Shown here piece by piece: positions 31,704-41,838 of a stretch of DNA of 64,000 nt. Position 1 is the stretch's first letter. Every line of letters begins with the position of its first letter. Under the pieces are notes generated by a model. That model was not told where the DNA came from, did not search any database, and saw only the letters and a program-made list of their open reading frames with translations. The position numbers and the translations under genes were made by a program. The stretch covers positions 3,264,001-3,328,000 of the forward strand of contig OY762911.1 of assembly GCA_963666565.1 (NCBI GenBank). The letters are read 5' to 3'. Origin of the DNA: Thermoanaerobaculia bacterium (lineage in GTDB: Bacteria > Acidobacteriota > Thermoanaerobaculia > Multivoradales > Multivoraceae).

Positions 31704-31782
31704 TCAGTAGGCCGCCGGTTGGGCTGGCACACTGACCATGACACCGCGATTCGCCACGGAGTAACATCCCGCCAACCAAAGT

Positions 31783-33084
31783 GGCTCTTCAGGGTTTCGA
31801 GTGGAACGTGAGCGAATCGGGGTAGAGGTTCAGGCCGCCGAGATGGAAGTAGATGGCGTCGCGGAACCGGTCCCGATTCCGGTAGCCGCGGGCGGACTTC
31901 TTGAGCGACTGGATGACCGAGTTGATGCCTTCGAGGCGCGCGTTGGTGACGCCCCGCTCGATCGCGTTCAGCACGCCGTCGAGATGAGCCTTGATCATGC
32001 GGGCGACTTCCTTCATGGGCTCGAGACGGCTGCGGATCGCCCACGAGTACCAGCCGTCGAAGATCTCTCGCGCCTCGACGCGGTCCCGCGTCTCCCACAT
32101 CATCATCGCCACCTCCTTCAGGTGCCAGCAACGCGCCGTCTTCAAGGTCGCGTTCACCAAGGTCTTGAAGGAGGCCGCATGCCTCTCCGGCAACCGGTCG
32201 GGGTGGTACAGCCACATGTGCCGGGTGCCGGCCAGCCGGTCGTCCCCCCGGTTCTGCAGCTCTCGGTGCTCCGCCACCCGCACCCGGTTCACGGCGTCGC
32301 CCAGATGGGCCGCGACGTGGAACTTGTCGTACGCGAGCTTGGCGCCGCCGGCAGGCAGGCAGGACACCGTCGCCGAGATGTACGCCGGCCACATGTCCAT
32401 CGCCACCGTCTCGATCCGGGAGCGCTCCGCCTCCGACAACGACTCGTAGTACGAGGACAGAGCGTCCTTGCCCCGACCGTCCGCCACGTGATGCACCCGC
32501 GGCTCGCCCTCGATGTCAGCCACCACCGTCACGTACTCGTGGCGCTTCTGAAACGACGTCTCGTCCACGCCCAGAACCCTCGACGCCGGCGCCGGCCCGC
32601 GCCGCTCGAGCCCGCGCTTCACCGCACGCTCCATCACGCCGGATACCTGGTCCCAACTCAGGTCCAGAAGCCGAGCCACCGCCGAGACGCTCGCCGCACC
32701 CAGCCAGTCGATCACCAGCGCCTCGAACAACGCCGTGAACCGCGAGCCCGGGTCCGACCAGGGCACGCCGATCGTCAGCACTCCGTGCTCCGCGCAACGC
32801 ACCCTAGGCACGTCCGCGGTCAGGATCGTCCGGTACTGGCACGTCGGCAGATGCCGCCAGCGCCGACGACGCGCGTCGTGCCGGCTCGCCGAGCCGCCGC
32901 ACTTGGGACAACGGAACGACTCGCCCTGCCTGCGAGCCACCAACACCTCCACCTCGCCGGACTCAAGCCGCAGCTCGACGTCCGTCACCTCCCAGGGACT
33001 CTCGATGCCGAGAATCCGACCGTACAAGTCTGTGTTGCGCATCGCGCCACACTACGCGATCTCCACCATCAACCCGGAAGAGCC
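31783..33084 (-). mobile_element. ISL3-family insertion sequence (1302 bp) with 8-bp TSD ACCAAAGT
   Basis: Ends GGCTCTTC...GAAGAGCC; ACCAAAGT at 31775-31782 and 33085-33092. Confidence 0.95.
31789..33042 (-). CDS. ISL3-family transposase
   Basis: Zn finger CPKC..RWRHL..RVRC.EHG, GVDETS, AMDMW, DKFHV, TNARLEGINS. Confidence 0.95.
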   Translation of the reverse strand: MRNTDLYGRILGIESPWEVTDVELRLESGEVEVLVARRQGESFRCPKCGGSASRHDARRRRWRHLPTCQYRTILTADVPRVRCAEHGVLTIGVPWSDPGSRFTALFEALVIDWLGAASVSAVARLLDLSWDQVSGVMERAVKRGLERRGPAPASRVLGVDETSFQKRHEYVTVVADIEGEPRVHHVADGRGKDALSSYYESLSEAERSRIETVAMDMWPAYISATVSCLPAGGAKLAYDKFHVAAHLGDAVNRVRVAEHRELQNRGDDRLAGTRHMWLYHPDRLPERHAASFKTLVNATLKTARCWHLKEVAMMMWETRDRVEAREIFDGWYSWAIRSRLEPMKEVARMIKAHLDGVLNAIERGVTNARLEGINSVIQSLKKSARGYRNRDRFRDAIYFHLGGLNLYPDSLTFHSKP

Positions 33085-33099
33085 ACCAAAGTGAGCGAG

Positions 33100-34179
33100 A
33101 TGGGCAGGGGAACAGGGGCCGCTCGCCGGCCCTACACCGTAGGCGCGCTCTTCTGCGGCATGGGCGGCTTCGCTTCAGGTATGGACCGGGAGGGGTTCGA
33201 CCTGCGCTGGGCCAGCGACTCCGACGCGGCTGCTTGCGCCACGTTTCACCACCGCTTCCCTCACGTCCCCGTGCTCGAGAGGGATGTGGCGGATCTCTCC
33301 GTGGCAGCCGATCGCCTCGATCCTGTCGATGTCCTGACGGCGGGCTTTCCGTGCCAGAGCTTCTCGCAAGCGGGCGACCGTCGGGGCTTCGACGATCCGC
33401 GTGGCCGGACGTTCCTCGAGATCATCCGCCTTGTTGGTGAGTTCGCTGAGACTGAAAGGCCCCGACTACTCTTGTTGGAGAACGTCCCGCACCTTCTCCA
33501 CGGCGCCGGAGGCGCCTGGTTCGACAGGGTGCGGCGTGAGCTGAGGCGCGCCGGCTACTGGTTTCGGCAGTCCGCCTGCTGGGTGGCCAACGTGAAGGAC
33601 GAGACCGCCCTTCCTCAAGACCGCGAGCGCCTGTTCATGGTGGCCGCTTCCAGACACCACTTCAGTTTCAACCCGTTCAGGCCTCCGGCAGACCGTCCTG
33701 AGACCGCCCAGCCCAGATTGTCCGCGAAGCTGAATGGCAAGCACGGTCTGGACGAGTTCGTCGACCGGGGCCACCGCCGAGAACCCTCCGAGTACTTGTC
33801 CCCACACAACCGCTACTTCAAGATGATCGCCCGGAAGATGGAGACTGGCGACCACCGGAACATCTACCAACTCAGGCGCTCCTACGTGCGCGAGAAGAAA
33901 GACGGCCTCTGCCCCACGCTCACAGCCAACATGGGGATCGGCGGACACAACGTCCCCTTCATACGGGACGAATGGGGAATCCGCCGGCTCGGCGTGGATG
34001 AAGTCGCTCGCCTCCAGGGGTTCAGCGACCCCCACAGCCTGTTTCCGGCGGAGATCCCTGCCACGGAACGCTATCGTCTGCTCGGCAACGCGGTATGCGC
34101 TGACCTCGCCACGGTGGTCGCCGGGCGCTGCATCGATATCCTGGTTGAACACTCCATACGGCCCAGCGAGGGAGACTAG
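33100..34179 (+). CDS. DNA (cytosine-5)-methyltransferase
   Basis: Motifs I LFCGMGG, IV GFPCQSFS, VI ENV, VIII PQDRER, IX RLQGF, X GNAV; start ATG 33100 or GTG 33091. Confidence 0.95.
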   Translation: MGRGTGAARRPYTVGALFCGMGGFASGMDREGFDLRWASDSDAAACATFHHRFPHVPVLERDVADLSVAADRLDPVDVLTAGFPCQSFSQAGDRRGFDDPRGRTFLEIIRLVGEFAETERPRLLLLENVPHLLHGAGGAWFDRVRRELRRAGYWFRQSACWVANVKDETALPQDRERLFMVAASRHHFSFNPFRPPADRPETAQPRLSAKLNGKHGLDEFVDRGHRREPSEYLSPHNRYFKMIARKMETGDHRNIYQLRRSYVREKKDGLCPTLTANMGIGGHNVPFIRDEWGIRRLGVDEVARLQGFSDPHSLFPAEIPATERYRLLGNAVCADLATVVAGRCIDILVEHSIRPSEGD

Positions 34180-34180
34180 C

Positions 34181-36163
34181 GTGGCTGATGACATCGGTTG
34201 GCACTTTCCGCCCACCGGCGGCGGCCAAGAAGACGGCTACAATCACTCTGGGATGGCGCACTTTCGCGGCGCCCGGATCGGGAGCTTGGCTCGCGAGACC
34301 ATCCAGAACTCGCTCGACGCACATGACCAGGGGCCGAAGGCGGTCCATGTGGCTTTCGAGGTCCGTTCGCTCAGCGCGCAGGAGGACTCCTTCGGCCACG
34401 AGGGACTCCGACGGGCGATCGAGTCCTGCCGCGTCCGCGCCGAGGCGGACGAGGACGATGGTGCCGTCGGTGGGCTGACTCGCGCATTGGACCTTCTTGA
34501 AGCTGGCGACGTCGCCTATCTGCGGATCTCCGACCAGAACACGACCGGCCTCACGAACCGCCACTGGAAGGCCCTCGTCAAAGTACAAGGTCTCACCGTC
34601 AAGCAGCCTGGAAGCGATCCTCTCGGTTCGCACGGCATCGGGAAGTACGCCCCGTTTGCGGTTTCGTCGCTCCGTACAGTCTTCTACTGGACTGCCTTTC
34701 CCGAGGACGGCAAAGTTGTAGAGAAGCTGCAGGGAAAGTCCGTACTGATGACCCACGACGGGCCTGAGGGTCCGACCCAGGGAACGGGCTTCTACGGCTA
34801 CCGACACGGATGTCGAGAACTCGACCCGGACCGAATACCGCGCTGCTTCCGGGTCCTGGACAACACCGGGAAGCCACAATCAGGTACGAGCCTGTCCGTG
34901 TTGGGCTTCAGTGCTGATCCGGGCTGGCAGCGAGAGCTCGCAGGACGAGTGCTCGTCAGCTTCTTTCATGCCGTCAGCCACGGCAACCTTGAGACGACGA
35001 TCGAACCCGACGACGAGCTGCAGGAACGCGAGCTCTTGACGATCGACCGGTGCACGATCGGCGATTGGTTCGCCTACTTGGTCGATTCCGCTCGATCCGG
35101 CGACGCCGATCAAGAGCTGGAGGACTTGGCCGAAGCCCGGGCCTTCTGGACGCTGCCGGGCGAGCACGATCAGAAGTTCGAGAAACAGGATCAGGATCTG
35201 GGCCATTGCAAGCTCTACCTGCGCGTAGAGGAGGGCTTGCCAAGCAAGGTCGCACTTGTCCGTCGGTCGGGCATGTTGGTGACCTCGGACCAGAGGGGTC
35301 TGAAGCAGTTTCGCGGACTCGATGACTTCGCTGCCCTGTGCGTCTTCGAGGATCCCGAGGGCAACGAGCTCCTTCGGAAGATGGAGAACCCGCAGCACGA
35401 TCAGTTCGAGCCGGAGCGTCTACCCGACGAAGAGAAGGAGGTCGGCCGCAAGGCACTCAAGCGGGTCACGGACTGGATCAGAAGCAGCATCCGCGAGCAC
35501 GCCAAGCCGCCCGAGACCGCGGCAACGTCGGCCCTAAAGGAAGTGGCTGAACTCCTTCCCGATCCGTATGCGGAGGATGATCTGGGCGGGGGCGCGGCCG
35601 GCGACGGCATCGAGAAGTCCTTCGCGGACCGAATCGAGGAGCTGGCACTCAGGCCGATCAGACGCCGCCCCTCACGCGGCCTCTCCTCAGAAGCTACAGA
35701 AGTGGATGCCAACGCCGAAGGCGACGGCGATTTGGAAGGAGAGCAAGGCGGTCGGGGCGAGGGATCGAACCACGGTGGTGGCGGGGACGGACATGGTCGC
35801 GGAGAGGGCGAAGGCCGAGGTGGAACCGGCTCTCGGGGAGGCAGCGCGACCGCGAAGCTCGTGCCAGTGCATGGCGTTCGCATGCTGCCGCTGGAAGATC
35901 GTCACGAACTGGAGGTCAGCTTCACGAGTACGGAGTCCGGGCTCGTACAGCTCCAGGTCGAGGAAGCAGGAGACGCCTCGGCAATCCCCCACGCCAATCT
36001 GATCGCCTTCGACGAGCATGGCGACCGTATCGACCTGCAGTGCGTGGAGATTCGCGCTCGCCGTCGCTTCCGCCTTCGGATCCGATCCACTGAGCCCATC
36101 CATGACCGGGCATGGCGAGTGGCGCTCAGGCCAGCCGCCGGCGGGGAGTACTCAGGAGGATGA
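34181..36163 (+). CDS. GHKL (HATPase/MORC-like) ATPase-domain protein
   Basis: Bergerat-fold motifs RETIQNSLDA, ISDQNTTGL, GSHGIGK, later GT; Gly/acidic linker and C-terminal beta-rich domain. Confidence 0.75.
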   Translation: MADDIGWHFPPTGGGQEDGYNHSGMAHFRGARIGSLARETIQNSLDAHDQGPKAVHVAFEVRSLSAQEDSFGHEGLRRAIESCRVRAEADEDDGAVGGLTRALDLLEAGDVAYLRISDQNTTGLTNRHWKALVKVQGLTVKQPGSDPLGSHGIGKYAPFAVSSLRTVFYWTAFPEDGKVVEKLQGKSVLMTHDGPEGPTQGTGFYGYRHGCRELDPDRIPRCFRVLDNTGKPQSGTSLSVLGFSADPGWQRELAGRVLVSFFHAVSHGNLETTIEPDDELQERELLTIDRCTIGDWFAYLVDSARSGDADQELEDLAEARAFWTLPGEHDQKFEKQDQDLGHCKLYLRVEEGLPSKVALVRRSGMLVTSDQRGLKQFRGLDDFAALCVFEDPEGNELLRKMENPQHDQFEPERLPDEEKEVGRKALKRVTDWIRSSIREHAKPPETAATSALKEVAELLPDPYAEDDLGGGAAGDGIEKSFADRIEELALRPIRRRPSRGLSSEATEVDANAEGDGDLEGEQGGRGEGSNHGGGGDGHGRGEGEGRGGTGSRGGSATAKLVPVHGVRMLPLEDRHELEVSFTSTESGLVQLQVEEAGDASAIPHANLIAFDEHGDRIDLQCVEIRARRRFRLRIRSTEPIHDRAWRVALRPAAGGEYSGG

Positions 36164-37026
36164 AGTGGGATCCAGGCAAAGCGTTTCCGCATCCCGTTCT
36201 CCGACCCGACCGGCGGGACGAAGGCGACTACCCGACAGCCGAGTTTGAAGCCGACGTCGAAGCGGTCCGCGCCAAGGGAGCGATGGCTGTGGAGGTGTCC
36301 GTCGACTTTGAACTGTCCGACGCCGACCTCAGAAGCCTCGTTGGTCGAGGCGACGCAGAGTGCGTCCTTCTTGTCGAGGCACCTACAACTCGTTTCCGCC
36401 GTCTTCTCAGGGCGACCTGCTACCGCCTGCACGAGAGCTTCCGTGCGGGCGAGTTGAAGGGAAGAGTCGAATTCCGGCCGTTCCTGGTCTGCCTGCGGGA
36501 ACTGGTCGGCTTCAAGGCGGCAGGGTGGCACGCCGACTACGGCAAACGGTCTTTCGACCTCTATCCGGGGTCTGTGCTTGGCCAGGACGAGCCGCGTGCG
36601 TACTGGATCGACACGGAAGACGAGAAGCCGATCGGCTCGATCTTCAAGCACGTGGCGTCAAGCCGCCAAGCGGATGGAACTTGGGTTTGTGACTTGTCCG
36701 GGAACCAGGTCGCGGTTCAGATGTCCGAACGGGACCATGGCCGCTTTGAAGAGGCCGGTCGCCGGCGCCAGGACGACGCCGCATTCCTGATCAACAGCGT
36801 CTACCTCCCGGCCCTTGTCCACGTGCTCAGCGAGGCGGATCGGTCGGAGGACGAGTACTCCGGCTATCGCTGGTTCTCCACGCTCGACCAGAAGCTTGAA
36901 GAACTCGGTTGCCCCCCTCTTGGAAGGGTAGCCCCGGATCGCCTCGCCGATGCTCAGAAGCTGTTGGATTCACCCTTGGGGCGTCTCCCCCAGTTCGCGG
37001 ACCGCGACTCGGAACCGGCGGCATGA
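36160..37026 (+). CDS. Hypothetical protein (FPHPVL N-terminal motif) of the methylase operon
   Basis: 288-aa ORF with ATGA overlaps at both ends. Confidence 0.8.
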   Translation: MKWDPGKAFPHPVLRPDRRDEGDYPTAEFEADVEAVRAKGAMAVEVSVDFELSDADLRSLVGRGDAECVLLVEAPTTRFRRLLRATCYRLHESFRAGELKGRVEFRPFLVCLRELVGFKAAGWHADYGKRSFDLYPGSVLGQDEPRAYWIDTEDEKPIGSIFKHVASSRQADGTWVCDLSGNQVAVQMSERDHGRFEEAGRRRQDDAAFLINSVYLPALVHVLSEADRSEDEYSGYRWFSTLDQKLEELGCPPLGRVAPDRLADAQKLLDSPLGRLPQFADRDSEPAA

Positions 37027-37653
37027 CTCTCCACTACTACAGGCAGGCGATCGTCGACGACTACTTCGACCGCGTTGAGCTGAACCTCGACTGGTACTAC
37101 GAGCCGAACGGGGAAGCGCCAGAACCCCAGGAGACATACACGACCAGATCGGCGCCCATTGAAGCGCGTGATCTGTCGAGCCTCCTGAAGCCACAGGACG
37201 CGAAACCGTCGGAGACGGACGCCGGCAACGCCCTACTCGTCTACGAGGCGCTGAACGCGCTCAGTCCGCATCAGGCGACCGACGAGAGACTCTGGGCCTA
37301 CCTCTGCCACAACAGCTGCTCGGCCTACGTCGCGTGGCGGTGGTTGGGACACCGTCCCGACGCCACTGAGGTGGCGGCCAAGAAAGTGCGCAGTCACTTC
37401 TTCGCCCGCCGGAACGGCTCCAGATCTCTCGTCCGGGACAATGGCGTCTCCAGGCTTTGGTGGCTCGGCTACATCGCGCACCAGATCGACCCGGAACACC
37501 CCCGCAGGTTTCTGGAGATTCTGCTCCACAGGCAGGACGTACGTTCCGCGCTGATCGAGAGGCCCGCGGTGTCGATGAACCTGGAAGTCCTCAAGGCCAT
37601 CTACGGCGTGATGCGGAACCTGTCAACGAGTTTGACACAGGGGCTTCTCGGAT

Positions 37654-38652
37654 TTACTGAGCCATCTCCGATGCTTCGGGGCTCGGCTTGTTGATCCAGA
37701 CGGCCTGAGGCAGGGGTTGGTGCATCGGCTCGCCGCCGACGAATCGTTCCGGGTGGCGTCTCCAGGCGGCGCTCAGCGCTCGCTGGCGCTGTTCGATCGC
37801 GGCTTGCGCCCGGCCGTAGTGGACGGTCTCCGGAGTCAGCATGGCGATGCCGGCATGCCGGTGCTCGGTGTTGTACCAGGGGAAGAAGGACCTGCAGTAG
37901 CCGGTCGCCGCGTCCTGGTCGGGGAAGCGGTCGGGAAAGCCGGGGTGGTACTTCAGGGTCTTGAACTGGGCTTCGGAGAAGGGGTTGTCGTCGCTGACGC
38001 GAGGTCGGCCCAGGGATCGGTTCACGCCGAGGCGGGCGAGCAGTTGGGCGGTACCCTGGCTGGTCATGGGCGCGCCCCGGTCGGAGTGCAGGGTGAGCAC
38101 CGAGGGTTTCACGCCGTGCTTGAGGCAGGTCTCCTCGATGAGCCTCTGGGCGAGCGCGGCATTCTCGCGGTCGGCAACCATCCAGCCGACCGCGTAGCGG
38201 CTGAAAAGGTCGAGCAGGACGTAGAGGTAGTAGTAGCTCCAGGGCCGCGGGCCGAGCAGCCTGGTGATGTCCCACGACCACACCTGGTTGGGCGCGGTGG
38301 CGACCAACTCCGGCTTGGCGTAGGGCGGGTGGACCCGCTGGTTGCGACGGTCCTTCACCTCCCCGTTCGCGCCCAGGATGCGGTACATGGTGCGTTCCGA
38401 GCACAGGTACCGGCCCTCGTCCAGCAGCGTCGCCACCACCTCCGCCGGCGAGCGATCCACGAACCGGGGAGACGCGAGCGTCGCCTGGACCCGCTCCCGC
38501 TCGATCTCGCTCAGCGCCCGGGCGGGCGCGGGTCGGGGCAGCTGGCGCCCGGGAGCGGGCCTCGCCCTACGGTAGAACGTCGATCGCGACACGCCCAGCG
38601 CCCGGCACGCCGGCGCGACGCCGACCTTGCTTGCCAGGGACCGGGCCGCCAT
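37654..38652 (-). CDS. IS3-family transposase OrfB (rve/DDE)
   Basis: PNQVWSWDIT, LDLFSRY.VGW, HSDRG, DNPFSEAQFKTLK, WYNTEHRH. Confidence 0.92.
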   Translation of the reverse strand: MAARSLASKVGVAPACRALGVSRSTFYRRARPAPGRQLPRPAPARALSEIERERVQATLASPRFVDRSPAEVVATLLDEGRYLCSERTMYRILGANGEVKDRRNQRVHPPYAKPELVATAPNQVWSWDITRLLGPRPWSYYYLYVLLDLFSRYAVGWMVADRENAALAQRLIEETCLKHGVKPSVLTLHSDRGAPMTSQGTAQLLARLGVNRSLGRPRVSDDNPFSEAQFKTLKYHPGFPDRFPDQDAATGYCRSFFPWYNTEHRHAGIAMLTPETVHYGRAQAAIEQRQRALSAAWRRHPERFVGGEPMHQPLPQAVWINKPSPEASEMAQ

Positions 38653-39137
38653 CAGCAGTCCTTCCCGTCTTCGAGGCTGAATCCCAGCAGCCCTGCAACT
38701 TTTCCCTGCACGTCCAGGATCGTGTGGGCGGCGGCGAGCTCCCTCTCCAGCCGCTTCACCTTGGCCTCCAGCCGCTTCACCTTCGGCGCCAGAGGGTTGG
38801 CCTCGGTCGGCTTGCGGCCCCGCTTCTTCCGCCGCAGACCGGAAAGCGCGCCCTCGCGCCGCGCCTTGCGCCAGTTGGCCAAGTGCGAGCTGTACAGACC
38901 CTCTCGCCGAAGCAGCCGGCCCACTTCGCCGCGATCCGTGCATCGGTCCGCCTCCTCCAGAATCCGCAGACGGTACTCCGCCGTGAACTGCCGTCTGGTC
39001 GGCTTCGCCACGACCTCCGGGTCGGGAACACCCCCCGCGGGCGACGCGCCGGCCCCGGGGGCCTCGTCGCTCCGCTCCTCACCCCCCGGGGCCGGGAGCT
39101 CCGGGCCACCCCAACGTCTCTGCTCTCGTCTCGCCAT
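38652..39137 (-). CDS. IS3-family transposase OrfA (HTH)
   Basis: RRQFTAEYRLRILEEAD..GEVGRLLRREGLYSSHL..WR; TGATG junction with OrfB, upstream GGGAAAAG possible slippery site. Confidence 0.88.
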   Translation of the reverse strand: MARREQRRWGGPELPAPGGEERSDEAPGAGASPAGGVPDPEVVAKPTRRQFTAEYRLRILEEADRCTDRGEVGRLLRREGLYSSHLANWRKARREGALSGLRRKKRGRKPTEANPLAPKVKRLEAKVKRLERELAAAHTILDVQGKVAGLLGFSLEDGKDC

Positions 39138-39388
39138 CGATCCTCCTTGCCAACGTGTGCCCTCCACTATTCAACGGGATGCCCGCTGTGTCACGTACGT
39201 TGGCAGAGAGGGATGCAGGAGCACTGGCAACAGGAGACGAGAGGCCTGTTCGCGCGCGAGACCTTTCGCACCTGGATGGTCAACATCAACCGGCGCGGAG
39301 GCGTCGTTCTCCTCGACGCTCTTCCGGAACCTGCCTTGACGGCGCTTCTGCGCGACGAGGCCGCGCGGGCCTTGGAGGCGACTGCCGG

Positions 39389-39805
39389 TTGACCGACAAT
39401 CTGAGCCCGGCGGATCGTTCCAGGTGCATGGCGAGCATCCGCTCGCAGGGCATGAAGCCCGAGCGTGCGGTCCGCTCCATGGCGCATCGCCTCGGCTATC
39501 GCTTCCGCTTGCACCGCCGAGACCTGCCCGGCACACCCGACCTCGTCTTCCCGCGACACCGGGCGGTGGTGTTCGTCAACGGCTGTTTCTGGCACTGGCA
39601 CGCCGATCCCATGTGCCCGATTGCTGCGCTCCCGAAGTCCAACCTAGGGTACTGGAAGCCGAAGTTGACCCGTACGCGTTCTCGCGACAGTGAGAACGTG
39701 GCCAAGCTGGTCTGTCTCGGTTGGAGGGTCCTCACGATCTGGGAGTGTGAGCTGCGGGACCCGGAGACCGCGCTCGTGCGGCTTGACCGATTCCTCTCGA
39801 CCTGA
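39389..39805 (+). CDS. vsr: Very short patch repair endonuclease
   Basis: D.LS...RS.CM..I....KPE, GYRFRLH..DLPG.PD, FVNGCFWH, GWRVL.IWEC; TTG start overlapping the preceding stop. Confidence 0.93.
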   Translation: MTDNLSPADRSRCMASIRSQGMKPERAVRSMAHRLGYRFRLHRRDLPGTPDLVFPRHRAVVFVNGCFWHWHADPMCPIAALPKSNLGYWKPKLTRTRSRDSENVAKLVCLGWRVLTIWECELRDPETALVRLDRFLST

Positions 39806-40093
39806 GCCAGCGAATCGCCTGGAAGGGCCGGCGGCCGGTCTGCACGGACCGAGTGACCAAGGCCTTGCATGGAACTGGCCGCCAGAGCAGAGCTGGCCTG
39901 ACGGCCGGCGCGCGTTCCGGCCGCCTGCGGGGACGCCGGCGCACCCAGTATGCGGCCAGTTCCTTGCGCGACAGCGCAGCCTGACGGCTGCGAGTACTCC
40001 TATGCGCCGGCGATCCGAGACGTCTGCCGTCGCGATAGCGGCTTCTTCGAGGCCATGCCGGCGTCTCTGCGGCTGCGGGCCGCAGTGAGCGGG

Positions 40094-40303
40094 TCAGGAC
40101 CGTTCGAACTCCTCCCGGCTGATCCCGAGGTCTCGGAGGATCGCCCGCACAGTACCCGGCCGGAGGTCGCGGCTTCCCCAGTTCGGGATTGTCGTGCGAA
40201 GTCGCGTCGACGGTCGGATCCAGATCTCGTGGCTCCCACGTCCCCTGCGGTCGAACTCGCAGTCGAGACGCCGGAGCTTGCGCGTGAGTTCACGGTACCT
40301 CAA
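40094..40303 (-). CDS. hicA: HicA-family toxin (mRNA interferase)
   Basis: RGRGSHEIW..TTIP....L.PGTVRAILRDLGIS. Confidence 0.85.
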   Translation of the reverse strand: MRYRELTRKLRRLDCEFDRRGRGSHEIWIRPSTRLRTTIPNWGSRDLRPGTVRAILRDLGISREEFERS

Positions 40304-40563
40304 ACAGCGACCATTACCTCGCTGAATCCGCGGCGCTCGCCAAGTTCCACGGCGGCGGCAGCGACCTCGGGAGGAAGCGGATCGCCATGAGCGCGGTGAG
40401 ACTCGATGAACGCCGTCGTGACACTCTGCAGGTTCTCCAGCGCAAGGGCGGCGGTTTCACCCCAGGCCCGGCAGCCGGGCAGCACGGGTACCTCAGCAAG
40501 GTACATTCCCTCCGTGTCTTCCGACGGTTCCTTGAGGACGAATTCGAGCCTGTACAGCTTCAT
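40300..40563 (-). CDS. hicB: HicB-family antitoxin (short, no DNA-binding domain)
   Basis: YLAEVPVLPGC.AWGET...ALENL; GDPLP. Confidence 0.85.
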   Translation of the reverse strand: MKLYRLEFVLKEPSEDTEGMYLAEVPVLPGCRAWGETAALALENLQSVTTAFIESHRAHGDPLPPEVAAAAVELGERRGFSEVMVAV

Positions 40564-40581: not shown

Positions 40582-40839
40582 CTAGCTCGTGCCGAGTAGG
40601 TGGGACAGTTCCAGAACCGCCGCAAACTGCGCCGCGAGAAATGCCGCGACGCCGCCGTACAGCGTTCGCGTCATCCGCGCCTCGAGCTTCGCCAGGGCGG
40701 CGTCCAGGTCGGACCGCGTGACTAGGCCGTCCTCCGCCACGGCGTTGCGGATCGTTGCCGTCACGGCAGCGGCCTGCTTCGCATCCATGCCGGCGTCCTC
40801 CAGGCCGCGGGCCGCGGTGAGCGTGTCGAAGGTCGTCAT
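40582..40839 (-). CDS. Small coiled-coil/TM protein (DUF1640/CCDC90-like)
   Basis: FDTL..AR.LE.AG....QA.A, LVTRSDL, LEARM, C-terminal hydrophobic stretch. Confidence 0.7.
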   Translation of the reverse strand: MTTFDTLTAARGLEDAGMDAKQAAAVTATIRNAVAEDGLVTRSDLDAALAKLEARMTRTLYGGVAAFLAAQFAAVLELSHLLGTS

Positions 40840-40845
40840 GGGCTG

Positions 40846-41838
40846 TCAGTCTATCCGCTCGGCGCCCCGCTGTCCCCCGGCCGCATCGCGCCTGAACGCC
40901 AGCAGTTCGCCGTAGCGGCCGGCGGCGTCCGGGGGCTCCCGGCCGTTCTCCTCCCGCGCGGCGCGGAGCCAGTCTGCGCTGGCCTTCAGGCCGCCGAAGG
41001 TGAACAGGTGGATGCCGGCCAGCGTGGTTCCCGGATTCCCGGCGAGATGGCGGGCGAGCGGCGCCGCGACGACGTCGGGCGACCAGCGGCCGGTCAGCCG
41101 CATCGCGCCGGGCCGGCGGCGCAGGAAGCGCGCCGACGGGCCGATGCCGCAGCGCGCCGCATAGATCGTCAGCGTATGCAGCCGGGCCGGTCCCGGCACG
41201 CCGATGCGCACTGGCAGCGTGCATCCGGCGTCCTCGATGCGTGCCAGCCAGTTCAGGAACGGCGCCGGCGAGAATCCGAACTGGGTCACGACCCACATCC
41301 GCGTGCCGGTCGCGGCGGCGTACTCGATCTTGCGCGAGAGCGCGGAGTCGAGGCGCCCGCGGTCGACGAAGGGATGACCTTCCGGATGGGCCGCGATTCC
41401 CAGGCTGCGAAAGCCGCGCTCCGCCAGCAGGCCGGAGTCGAGGACCGCCAGAGCGTCGGGATACGGTCCGGCCGCTTCGGCGCGGTCGCCGGCCACGAGC
41501 AGCAGGGAGTCGACGCCGGCGCCGGCCAGTTCGGACAGCCGCGCGTCGAGCTCGGCGGCGCTTCGCAATTCCCTGGCGAGCAGGTGCGGCACGGGCTTCA
41601 TCCCGGCCGACAGGATCCGCTCGCACGCCGCGACCGTGTCCCGCCAGCGGCCCCTGGGCAGGAACGGCACGTAGACGCTGGCGCCCCGGGGAAGGTGGCG
41701 CGCCAGCGATTCGCCCACCGCGTGCGGCGGCACCTCGACCGACGCCCCGACCGCCAGGTCGCGCAGGGCGGACCGCTCGCCGTCCTCGTCCGGCGCCGCC
41801 ATCGACGGCGCGGGCCGCTCCGACGAACCGAACCGCAT
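40846..41838 (-). CDS. metF: Methylenetetrahydrofolate reductase
   Basis: PVPHL.AR, LLVAGD, AAHPEGHP, VTQFGF, GVPGP, HLFTFGG; start ATG 41838 or 41802. Confidence 0.85.
   Translation of the reverse strand: MRFGSSERPAPSMAAPDEDGERSALRDLAVGASVEVPPHAVGESLARHLPRGASVYVPFLPRGRWRDTVAACERILSAGMKPVPHLLARELRSAAELDARLSELAGAGVDSLLLVAGDRAEAAGPYPDALAVLDSGLLAERGFRSLGIAAHPEGHPFVDRGRLDSALSRKIEYAAATGTRMWVVTQFGFSPAPFLNWLARIEDAGCTLPVRIGVPGPARLHTLTIYAARCGIGPSARFLRRRPGAMRLTGRWSPDVVAAPLARHLAGNPGTTLAGIHLFTFGGLKASADWLRAAREENGREPPDAAGRYGELLAFRRDAAGGQRGAERID

Follow-up and report, generated by a model that had tools for sequence, protein, structure and literature searches.

A decayed copy of a mobile five-gene C5 methyltransferase and Vsr cassette carrying the PDC-M33 triad in a Thermoanaerobaculia genome

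The locus and its insertion elements

Five co-oriented, tightly coupled genes lie on the plus strand between positions 33091 and 39805 of a 64,000-nt window from the genome of a Thermoanaerobaculia bacterium (assembly GCA_963666565.1, contig OY762911.1, positions 3,264,001 to 3,328,000; 'the window' denotes this whole stretch, in which all coordinates are given). We call these genes M, A, B, C and V; together they form a copy, now decayed, of a five-gene cassette, M-A-B-C-V, that moves horizontally. M (33091-34179), which starts with GTG, encodes a C5 cytosine DNA methyltransferase of 362 aa; it matches PF00145 over residues 17-347 (E-value 3.4e-49), TIGR00675 (2e-50) and the PADLOC model MTase_II (6e-64), with scores that exceed curated cut-offs, and its translation shows the motifs FCGMGG, GFPCQ, ENV, QxRxR and GNAV, the catalytic C5 motifs including PC being present. 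A (34181-36163), also with a GTG start, encodes a protein of 660 aa that matches PDC-M33A (2.2e-92) and is predicted to be a GHL-type (Bergerat-fold) ATPase with a transducer domain, and B (36160-37026; 288 aa) matches PDC-M33B (3.7e-40); neither matched any Pfam or NCBIfam family. C lies in two parts. The first (37023-37614) comprises 197 whole codons plus one base of codon 198, and matches both DUF6339 (PF19866; 1.5e-34, 119.7 bits against a Pfam gathering score of 23.2) and PDC-M33C (1.2e-33); the second (39212-39392), placed by alignment to intact relatives, holds the last 58 codons and the stop. V (39389-39805) encodes a Vsr very-short-patch repair endonuclease of 138 aa (TIGR00632, 1.5e-40, 138.2 bits against a curated cut-off of 97.85; PF03852, 1.7e-25). 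M stops at 34179 and A begins at 34181, leaving a 1-nt gap, while A and B overlap in ATGA at 36160-36163, B and C in ATGA at 37023-37026, and the stop of C overlaps the start of V in TTGA at 39389-39392. These coordinates and all four junctions are those given in an earlier interpretation made from the letters of the DNA (the sequence-only reading), and the family matches bear out its C5 methyltransferase, DUF6339-like and Vsr assignments.

The emphasis of that reading needs one correction, in that the fourth gene does not run as a single frame from 37023 to 39392. The DUF6339 gene in that place is split after 37614 by an IS3-family insertion sequence (IS) of 1,597 bp on the minus strand (37615-39211; orfA 38652-39167, orfB 37654-38943; Pfam rve 4.8e-22 and HTH_Tnp_1 1.6e-5). 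This element is flanked by a 5-bp direct duplication, GATGC, at 37610-37614 and 39212-39216, and in DNA alignments to the intact C genes of two relatives (loci L007 and L010 of the set described below) homology stops after the first copy and restarts at the second. Without the insertion and one copy of GATGC, the two halves of C are in frame and give a total of 255 aa, the same as in L007.

A second element, of the ISL3 family, lies directly upstream of the cassette on the minus strand (31784-33085; transposase open reading frame (ORF) 31789-33042; Pfam DDE_Tnp_ISL3 2.3e-69). It has terminal inverted repeats at 31765-31805 and 33062-33102, and the 8-bp target duplication that borders it, CCAAAGTG, occupies 31776-31783 and 33086-33093. 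On the right the element reaches up to the start codon of M, the GTG of which is contained in the right-hand copy of the duplication, and homology to L007 picks up again directly past the element. Because the IS3 element splits C and the ISL3 element separates M from its upstream region, the cassette is most likely inactive in this genome.

Contigs from three public sequencing runs were compared with the window; the runs may include the source sample of the genome, so that they provide no independent proof. One contig of 4,637 nt spans 33006-37642 with 0 differences and crosses the ISL3/M junction, and unique contigs end 27-28 nt inside the ends of the IS3 element. The depth of the IS3 element was 5-8 times that of its flanks, which marks it as multicopy, and that of the ISL3 element was likewise several-fold higher. 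No contig joined 37614 to 39212, so that an IS-free allele was not seen, although contigs can drop rare variants and absence is not implied. A contig joint from 33084 to 39880 was disregarded, as it had 28 letters on one side and lay within repeats, and one run, in which a small share of the sequence matched with 5-10% difference, represents a relative and is uninformative on this strain.

A catalogued candidate family and its distribution

A, B and C are members of a family that already has a name. PADLOC-DB holds a candidate system, PDC-M33 (models PDLC04582-04587), defined as three hidden Markov model families, and the three proteins match these models near full length: A with residues 5-603 on model positions 3-572 of 627, B with residues 7-273 on positions 6-272 of 289, and the 5' part of C on positions 1-196 of 247. 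PDC-M33A is the sole PADLOC-DB model that A matches at E ≤ 0.1. As the three genes are also adjacent and co-oriented, with overlapping stops and starts, they constitute a PDC-M33 system, with a C that is interrupted by an IS. The definition comprises the triad, whereas here and in most of the related loci a C5 methyltransferase and Vsr frame it. 'PDC' stands for phage defence candidate, the label of a preprint that put forward 145 single- or multi-gene candidates by 'guilt-by-embedding', picking genes that lie within BREX, DISARM and Type I restriction–modification (R-M) loci (10.1101/2024.01.29.577857). The main text of that preprint, as distinct from its supplementary tables, mentions none of GHKL, Vsr, DUF6339 or cytosine. 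Our literature search found no paper using the terms 'PDC-M33' or 'DUF6339' in the library covered, and a search on GHKL, Vsr, cytosine methyltransferase and defense gave no title about this system among the 15 listed. The general theme was predicted in 2008, when MutL/MORC-like GHKL ATPases were placed in operons with cytosine methylases and Vsr (Iyer, Abhiman and Aravind, PMC2292703). The system accordingly belongs to a candidate family that is already catalogued and falls under a theme put forward in 2008, and its description in the sequence-only reading as undescribed and matching no named system does not stand. New here are the five-gene framing with Dcm and Vsr around PDC-M33, the fold-level assignment of A as a predicted GHL ATPase in a system with no recognisable nuclease, a confident model of the DUF6339 fold without known match, and the precise layout of the decayed copy.

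Scanning a single genome for each species gave 75 distinct loci (L007-L081), which were fetched, and all their ORFs were subjected to iterated profile searches. The order M-A-B-C is repeated among these loci, far above chance. M was near-full in 58 loci, fragmentary in 13 and absent from four; the corresponding numbers were 52, 23 and 0 for A, 66, 6 and 3 for B, 69, 4 and 2 for C, and 48, 3 and 24 for V, a few of the fragmentary calls being contig-end cuts or divergence from a profile for which the truncated C had served as the basis. In 71 of the 75 loci there was thus a methylase that fits the M profile; of the four others, two are contigs that start < 130 nt from A and two have a 5'-truncated A. 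Near-full M, A, B and C occurred together in 40 loci, in 24 of these along with V. Among whole, co-oriented pairs, M and A overlap or abut in 36 of 39 cases (≤ 20 nt apart in all 39), A and B in 41 of 49 (47 at ≤ 20 nt), B and C in 43 of 63 (61 at ≤ 20 nt), and C and V in 12 of 37 (35 at ≤ 20 nt); our script took the start codon nearest the start of the profile, so the gaps depend on this choice. Across the loci, the profile scores of M and A drop together, by an informal reading rather than a co-phylogeny test.

Since no further gene family recurs in the flanks (the largest cluster was found in 6 of the 75 loci), the conserved unit is M-A-B-C, usually with V, and nothing else. V usually stands directly after C. 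However, three of five whole genomes that carry M-A-B-C without an adjacent Vsr have no vsr anywhere, and the triad is linked to the methylase rather than to Vsr. The five-gene cassette proposed in the sequence-only reading is therefore a conserved one; the co-occurrence of its middle genes with dcm/vsr, a check suggested there, is strong (an M-profile methylase in 71 and Vsr in 51 of the 75 loci), and the helicase, Z1, HNH and McrBC genes whose absence it had noted are found neither in the cassette nor in the conserved flanks. Decay is common among the loci (e.g. L008, L020, L021, L034 and L043), with A fragmentary in 23 of them, and several contain pieces of A or B separated by a gap of 1.2-1.6 kb that resembles an insertion. 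One locus has a second B-C pair upstream of the cassette (L052, 3879-5500), and another, from Paenibacillus, a second methylase and a second A-like gene downstream of the first (L067, 5958-11780).

By their record titles, the 75 loci derive mostly from metagenome-assembled genomes (MAGs) of many phyla, including Dehalococcoidia, Acidobacteriota-type, Alpha- and Gammaproteobacteria, Poribacteria, Entotheonella, Spirochaetia and Patescibacteria, with isolates of Paenibacillus, Myxococcus, Bradyrhizobium, Granulicatella and Hydrosulfovibrio. Relatives of A numbered 494 at E ≤ 1e-5 among 8,000 candidates scored; all 120 listed among these 494 were unnamed or 'hypothetical' and had no Pfam domain. 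The family is rare, as only five of 401 genomes in a phylum sample match PDC-M33A at E ≤ 1e-20, and two of these five are of a divergent paralogue type.

More distant triads, with A identities of 25-31%, came from several plasmids, one of them archaeal, and from a temperate phage. On the conjugative Lactococcus lactis plasmid pS127, the triad lies between an AlwI-type R-M system with two D12 methylases and the abortive infection (Abi) genes AbiGI/AbiGII; an N6-methylase fragment then follows, and there is no C5 methyltransferase within 6 kb. A Ligilactobacillus salivarius megaplasmid carries the triad between hsdS-hsdM and an MmeI-like methylase with a DEAD-box helicase. On a Priestia plasmid it adjoins the Sau3AI/MutH-type endonuclease of an R-M system and dcm, and on a Deinococcus plasmid it is near dcm-vsr. 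In the temperate phage, of Clostridium innocuum, it stands ~0.9 kb from the integrase, with a C5 methyltransferase and an AAA_5 gene downstream. The archaeal triad is on a Halobaculum plasmid and adjoins a second, Pfam-recognisable GHKL ATPase with dcm. There, two GHKL-methylase systems lie next to each other, the second consisting of an ATPase (HATPase_c_3, 2.6e-19) and a DNA cytosine methyltransferase (L088, 11122-14200, minus strand). Every plasmid, phage and archaeal triad that we inspected has a DNA methyltransferase within a few kb, and the C homologues on the plasmids carry the annotation 'DUF6339 family protein'.

The window's own copy is mobile as well. It belongs to an island of ~10 kb (about 31.70-41.85 kb, with bounds taken from comparison with congeners) between dctP on the left (DctP, 7e-60) and a GCV_T-type gene on the right (GCV_T, 2e-40; both Pfam). 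The island is missing from three of 12 congeners (G397 C9, G206 C3 and G411 C360), in which the two flanking genes are 6-17 bp apart, and we therefore regard the ~10 kb as an insertion in this lineage. Besides the two IS elements and the cassette, the island contains a multicopy repeat, a hicAB pair and an MTHFR-like ORF, and its G+C content is 0.64 over 33-38 kb against 0.70-0.73 around it, as expected from the sequence-only reading, which had described a G+C-poorer island with IS elements and a hic pair. Low G+C, surroundings of IS and toxin–antitoxin genes, patchiness, presence on mobile replicons and frequent decay are typical of defence or mobile genes.

The hic pair lies on the minus strand, outside the cassette proper, and consists of a HicA toxin gene (40094-40303; HicA_toxin, 1.4e-17) and a HicB-like antitoxin gene (40300-40563; HicB_lk_antitox, 5e-4, under the Pfam cut-off). 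Short multicopy sequences occur directly downstream of vsr (39789-40095) and of hicAB (40620-40850); their contig depth is ~8 times that of the flanks, and the second matches several sites in this and related genomes. They may be elements like MITEs (miniature inverted-repeat transposable elements) or REPs (repetitive extragenic palindromes).

Models and conserved residues of A, B and C

The Bergerat fold of GHKL ATPases is marked by four motifs, ExxxNxxD, DxxxxG, GxxGxG and a GT-containing motif. In 20 aligned A sequences the corresponding residues are invariant: E39/N43/D46, D118/G123, G149/G152/G154 and G201-T202-G203. An AlphaFold2 model of A reached a mean pLDDT (predicted local distance difference test) of 66; it is good at residues 250-440 and 560-655 and poor at 1-31, 130-165, 187-212 and in a linker at 446-557, with an N-terminal part of moderate confidence. 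Foldseek retrieved 180 PDB chains with this model at E ≤ 0.001, headed by TRAP1/Hsp90, Topo VI-B and ParE (E ~1e-6, probability 1.0). VIA likewise aligned the model with Topo VI-B (Z 14.3; 291 residues aligned; root-mean-square deviation 5.1), followed by Hsc82 (Z 13.8), MORC3 (13.5), GyrB (13.0), SMCHD1 (12.5) and MORC2 (12.4), all of these matches covering model residues ~10-448 with 265-297 residues aligned. As the Z values are effectively tied, the subfamily of A cannot be named. A GHKL-type fold together with all four motifs supports the GHKL ATPase that the sequence-only reading had seen in A, and on the model A is a GHL-type ATPase plus transducer with a MutL-like layout: an ATPase and transducer region at ~10-448, a Gly/Arg-rich linker at 446-557 and a beta-rich C-terminal domain at ~560-655. 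None of the 20 members contains MutL_C or another Pfam domain at E ≤ 1, the fold of the C-terminal domain not having been searched separately, and a search for longer, fused versions of A came up empty, a negative that counts for little.

Two further regions of A are strongly conserved. In the transducer, D337, H342-C343, C387, E396 and E402-N403-P404-x-H406 are invariant in the 20 sequences. E402 and H406, within MENPxHD, stand at the end of the well-modelled middle domain, and may correspond to the ExxxH motif with which, according to PMC2292703, the S5 domain of paraMORC2 ends on its C-terminal side. The linker has eleven invariant glycines across distant relatives (residues ~516-555, encoded at 35726-35845). 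Because these glycines are so strongly conserved, the sequences suggest that the linker is functional, perhaps in nucleic-acid binding, rather than a spacer. A sequence-profile search of the PDB with A gave solely Gly-rich low-complexity matches, to RGG-type tails of the eukaryotic ribosomal protein uS5.

B was followed by sequence. Its invariants in a 30-sequence alignment are M1, P12, G137, W238 and P272 and no others. It belongs to no Pfam family and has no PDB sequence relative below E 1 in a profile search, and the ESM Atlas held no model for two B sequences, only clusters of 'hypothetical protein', none of them named. When A(1-448), B and C were submitted to complex prediction, the score with B as partner was 0.75, against 0.65 with A replaced, a difference that speaks neither for nor against binding. 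A single metagenomic protein of 541 aa (P0126), met in a search for longer relatives of C, reads B and then C in one frame; it was not taken as a natural fusion, as its B end departs from the consensus and frameshift read-through is likely.

C of an intact relative was modelled with a pLDDT of 91.8 and a pTM (predicted template-modelling score) of 0.89 and is nearly all helical. The best match in a wide structural search, with a Z of 6.6 across 84 residues, does not rise above the noise level given for helical proteins, and a PDB sequence-profile search gave nothing below E 1. The cryptic-nuclease check proposed in the sequence-only reading, made with Foldseek on the models of A and C, yielded a GHL ATPase fold for A and no nuclease fold for C. 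In 28 C sequences W91, Y102 and L145-W146-W147 are invariant, and H96, R106, R138, R144, E179 and R180 nearly so. A HEPN assignment was considered and rejected: the Rx6H-like R89...H96 is not conserved in three of the 28 sequences, and neither the PDB nor the wide structural search listed a HEPN protein. One Saccharibacteria MAG encodes a 506-aa DUF6339 protein that ends in two topoisomerase-I-type C4 zinc ribbons (L075, 2879-4396; Pfam 1.5e-16), and this fusion fits a putative DNA-associated role of C.

Possible function and rival explanations

The tight coupling of M and A, the near-constant presence of a methyltransferase, the mobile, patchy and decayed distribution, and the R-M and Abi neighbours together make it probable, in our judgement, that A-B-C form a restriction-like arm guarded by the methylase. 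M would place 5-methylcytosine (5mC) on the host's own DNA, and Vsr, the usual companion of 5mC methylases, would mend the T:G mismatches that arise when 5mC is deaminated. A, B and C together would act as an ATP-driven clamp on DNA that lacks the mark of M, separating self from non-self. Because A-B-C contain no recognisable sequence-reading or nuclease domain, target recognition may come from M itself, as it does from Mod in Type III systems, and the damaging step might consist in cutting at a site that has escaped recognition, in calling in a nuclease, or in an obstruction that leaves the DNA uncut. Tests of other PDCs have had mixed outcomes; in one study, four out of eight candidates (seven PDCs, one HEC) gave E. 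coli protection (10.1101/2024.09.26.614923).

Several findings weigh against a methylase-guarded restriction-like arm. No Pfam GHKL model (HATPase_c, HATPase_c_3) matches A at E ≤ 0.1, or any of the 20 members at E ≤ 1. B has no conserved acidic, His or Lys position of catalytic type in 30 sequences, and the model of C found no PDB or viral match, its best Foldseek E being 0.41 in the PDB and 1.1 in BFVD. Searches of A, B and C against Pfam, NCBIfam and PADLOC, and the models of A and C, revealed no domain of nuclease, helicase or methyl-reading type. The triad occurs with C5, D12 N6, HsdM and MmeI-like methylases, and given this variety a link between A-B-C and the reading of a neighbouring methylase's mark would be only conjectural. 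The copy in the window is broken and thus silent on activity. Finally, the PDC systems were labelled 'untested' in the preprint from which they come (10.1101/2024.01.29.577857), and two other PDCs gave no defence in a native host (PMC12409345).

Several known systems share part of this design. Type III R-M, BREX and DISARM offer a functional analogy, as there too a methyltransferase would work in an operon with ATP-using partners that have no sequence-recognition domain of their own; A, B and C, however, show no PADLOC homology to Res, PglZ, BrxC or Drm. Compared with Type II R-M, the C5 methyltransferase and its motifs are present in M, but no restriction endonuclease gene was recognised in A, B, C or the conserved flanks, B being judged by sequence alone. 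Tiamat (10.64898/2026.09.30.754977) and the GHKL-Shedu protein VcSduA (PMC12137116) have an N-terminal GHKL ATPase with a presumed control over an effector, occur rarely and in association with defence loci, and have shown anti-phage activity; they are single proteins with a fused PD-(D/E)xK nuclease, which A lacks. Similar in genetic setting are the MORC and paraMORC operons (PMC2292703), in which a GHKL plus S5-type ATPase is likewise found with cytosine methylases and Vsr-superfamily endonucleases and is sporadic and laterally mobile in distribution, paraMORC2 having the ExxxH motif to which E402-x3-H406 may correspond. Those operons are described with SFII helicases and HNH, RE-fold or EcoRII-like nucleases, none of which is present here, no partner of the B or C type was found in their description, and A escapes the Pfam GHKL models.

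That these differences amount to a separate kind of immunity is a bolder reading, which we hold to be less likely than not. M-A-B-C might represent a distinct class of methylation-based immunity in which M reads the sequence, the part played by a helicase or translocase in Type I and III systems falls to a MutL/MORC-type GHL clamp, and B and C complete an effector that works through an unrecognised nuclease site or through non-cutting arrest. If there is such a site, the invariant cluster of H342-C343, C387 and E402-x3-H406 in the transducer of A could be a candidate for it.

The alternative that survives best, though we think it unlikely, is that A-B-C are a self-contained defence or abortive-infection module that merely travels in R-M loci and senses something else, or other modified DNA. 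PDCs were defined purely by embedding in BREX, DISARM and Type I R-M loci (10.1101/2024.01.29.577857), the triad sits beside C5, D12-N6, HsdM and MmeI-type methylases alike, pS127 offers no C5 methyltransferase within 6 kb, and no methyl-reading domain was recognised, all of which such a module would explain. It would not be expected, on the other hand, that M comes first in the clade of the window and overlaps or abuts A in 36 of 39 pairs, that an M-profile methylase is present in 71 of 75 loci, that the scores of M and A fall in parallel (on the informal reading given above), or that all inspected plasmid, phage and archaeal triads have a methyltransferase within a few kb.

Less probable again is a role outside defence, with A-B-C as a repair accessory that helps Vsr or a mismatch-repair-like process at deaminated sites of M. 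The modelled layout of A, with GHL ATPase and transducer, long disordered or flexible linker and small C-terminal domain, resembles that of MutL; the triad stands between dcm and vsr, with Vsr in 51 of 75 loci and mostly straight after C; and MutL working with Vsr or MutH shares both the genetic link to Dcm and Vsr and the use of a methyl mark to distinguish DNA strands or molecules. In very-short-patch repair, E. coli MutL cooperates with Vsr, and some GHKL proteins of R-M type may have been recruited to repair (PMC2292703). However, 24 of the 75 loci have no Vsr, three of the five genomes whose locus lacks it contain no vsr at all, and the triad is also found with N6-adenine methylases, where repair of deamination is irrelevant. 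Nor does the cassette have a MutS partner or MutS-like domain, or a MutL_C domain by Pfam, and the triad is mobile and dispensable, rare and patchy, borne by plasmids and a prophage near Abi and R-M genes, and often pseudogenised.

It is very improbable that the cassette has no part in immunity and is instead a selfish addiction module or, in the manner of MORC, a device that uses the 5mC signal in epigenetic control or chromosome organisation. In favour of this, the ATPase modules of eukaryotic MORC proteins and SMCHD1 are among the structural matches of A (Z 12.4-13.5), methylated or silenced chromatin is where these proteins are said to act (PMC2292703; 10.64898/2026.09.30.754977), and mobility and decay would also suit a selfish element. 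Against it, the MORC resemblance is unspecific, as all GHL subfamilies tie in Z, the plasmid neighbours are defence genes, and no regulator or chromatin-type domain was found.

The PDC-M33 family extends over many bacterial phyla, an archaeon, plasmids and a temperate phage, and is almost always near a DNA methyltransferase, while GHL ATPases with a proven anti-phage role are few (10.64898/2026.09.30.754977). Should the methylase-guarded arm restrict DNA, it would link a methyl mark with an ATP-driven clamp in a new way, assign functions to DUF6339 and to a protein without family, and set the MORC-type ATPases, which in eukaryotes respond to DNA methylation, in a prokaryotic context. For the present genome the significance is modest, the cassette being the gene set of a decaying island.

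The same genome has a second, divergent locus (G000:C1:4176117-4185521; L082, 8118-17522), in which an A'/B' pair at G000:C1:4177452-4180156 matches PDC-M33A (8e-19) and PDC-M33B (1e-6). Upstream of the pair lies a PAPS-reductase-like gene with weak matches to SspD and BrxP; downstream, past an intervening stretch, a 796-aa protein with a sigma-70 region-4 helix-turn-helix and a PbeA helicase (9e-150) are encoded. PADLOC recognised no complete system in the locus, which may constitute an independent modification-based system, so that the A/B pair seems to be shared by different kinds of such systems. Given that it recurs next to a PAPS-reductase-like gene and a PbeA helicase, the pair might serve generally as a reader-engine of various DNA modifications. 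Two loci in other genomes, L005 and L006, resemble the A'/B' locus.

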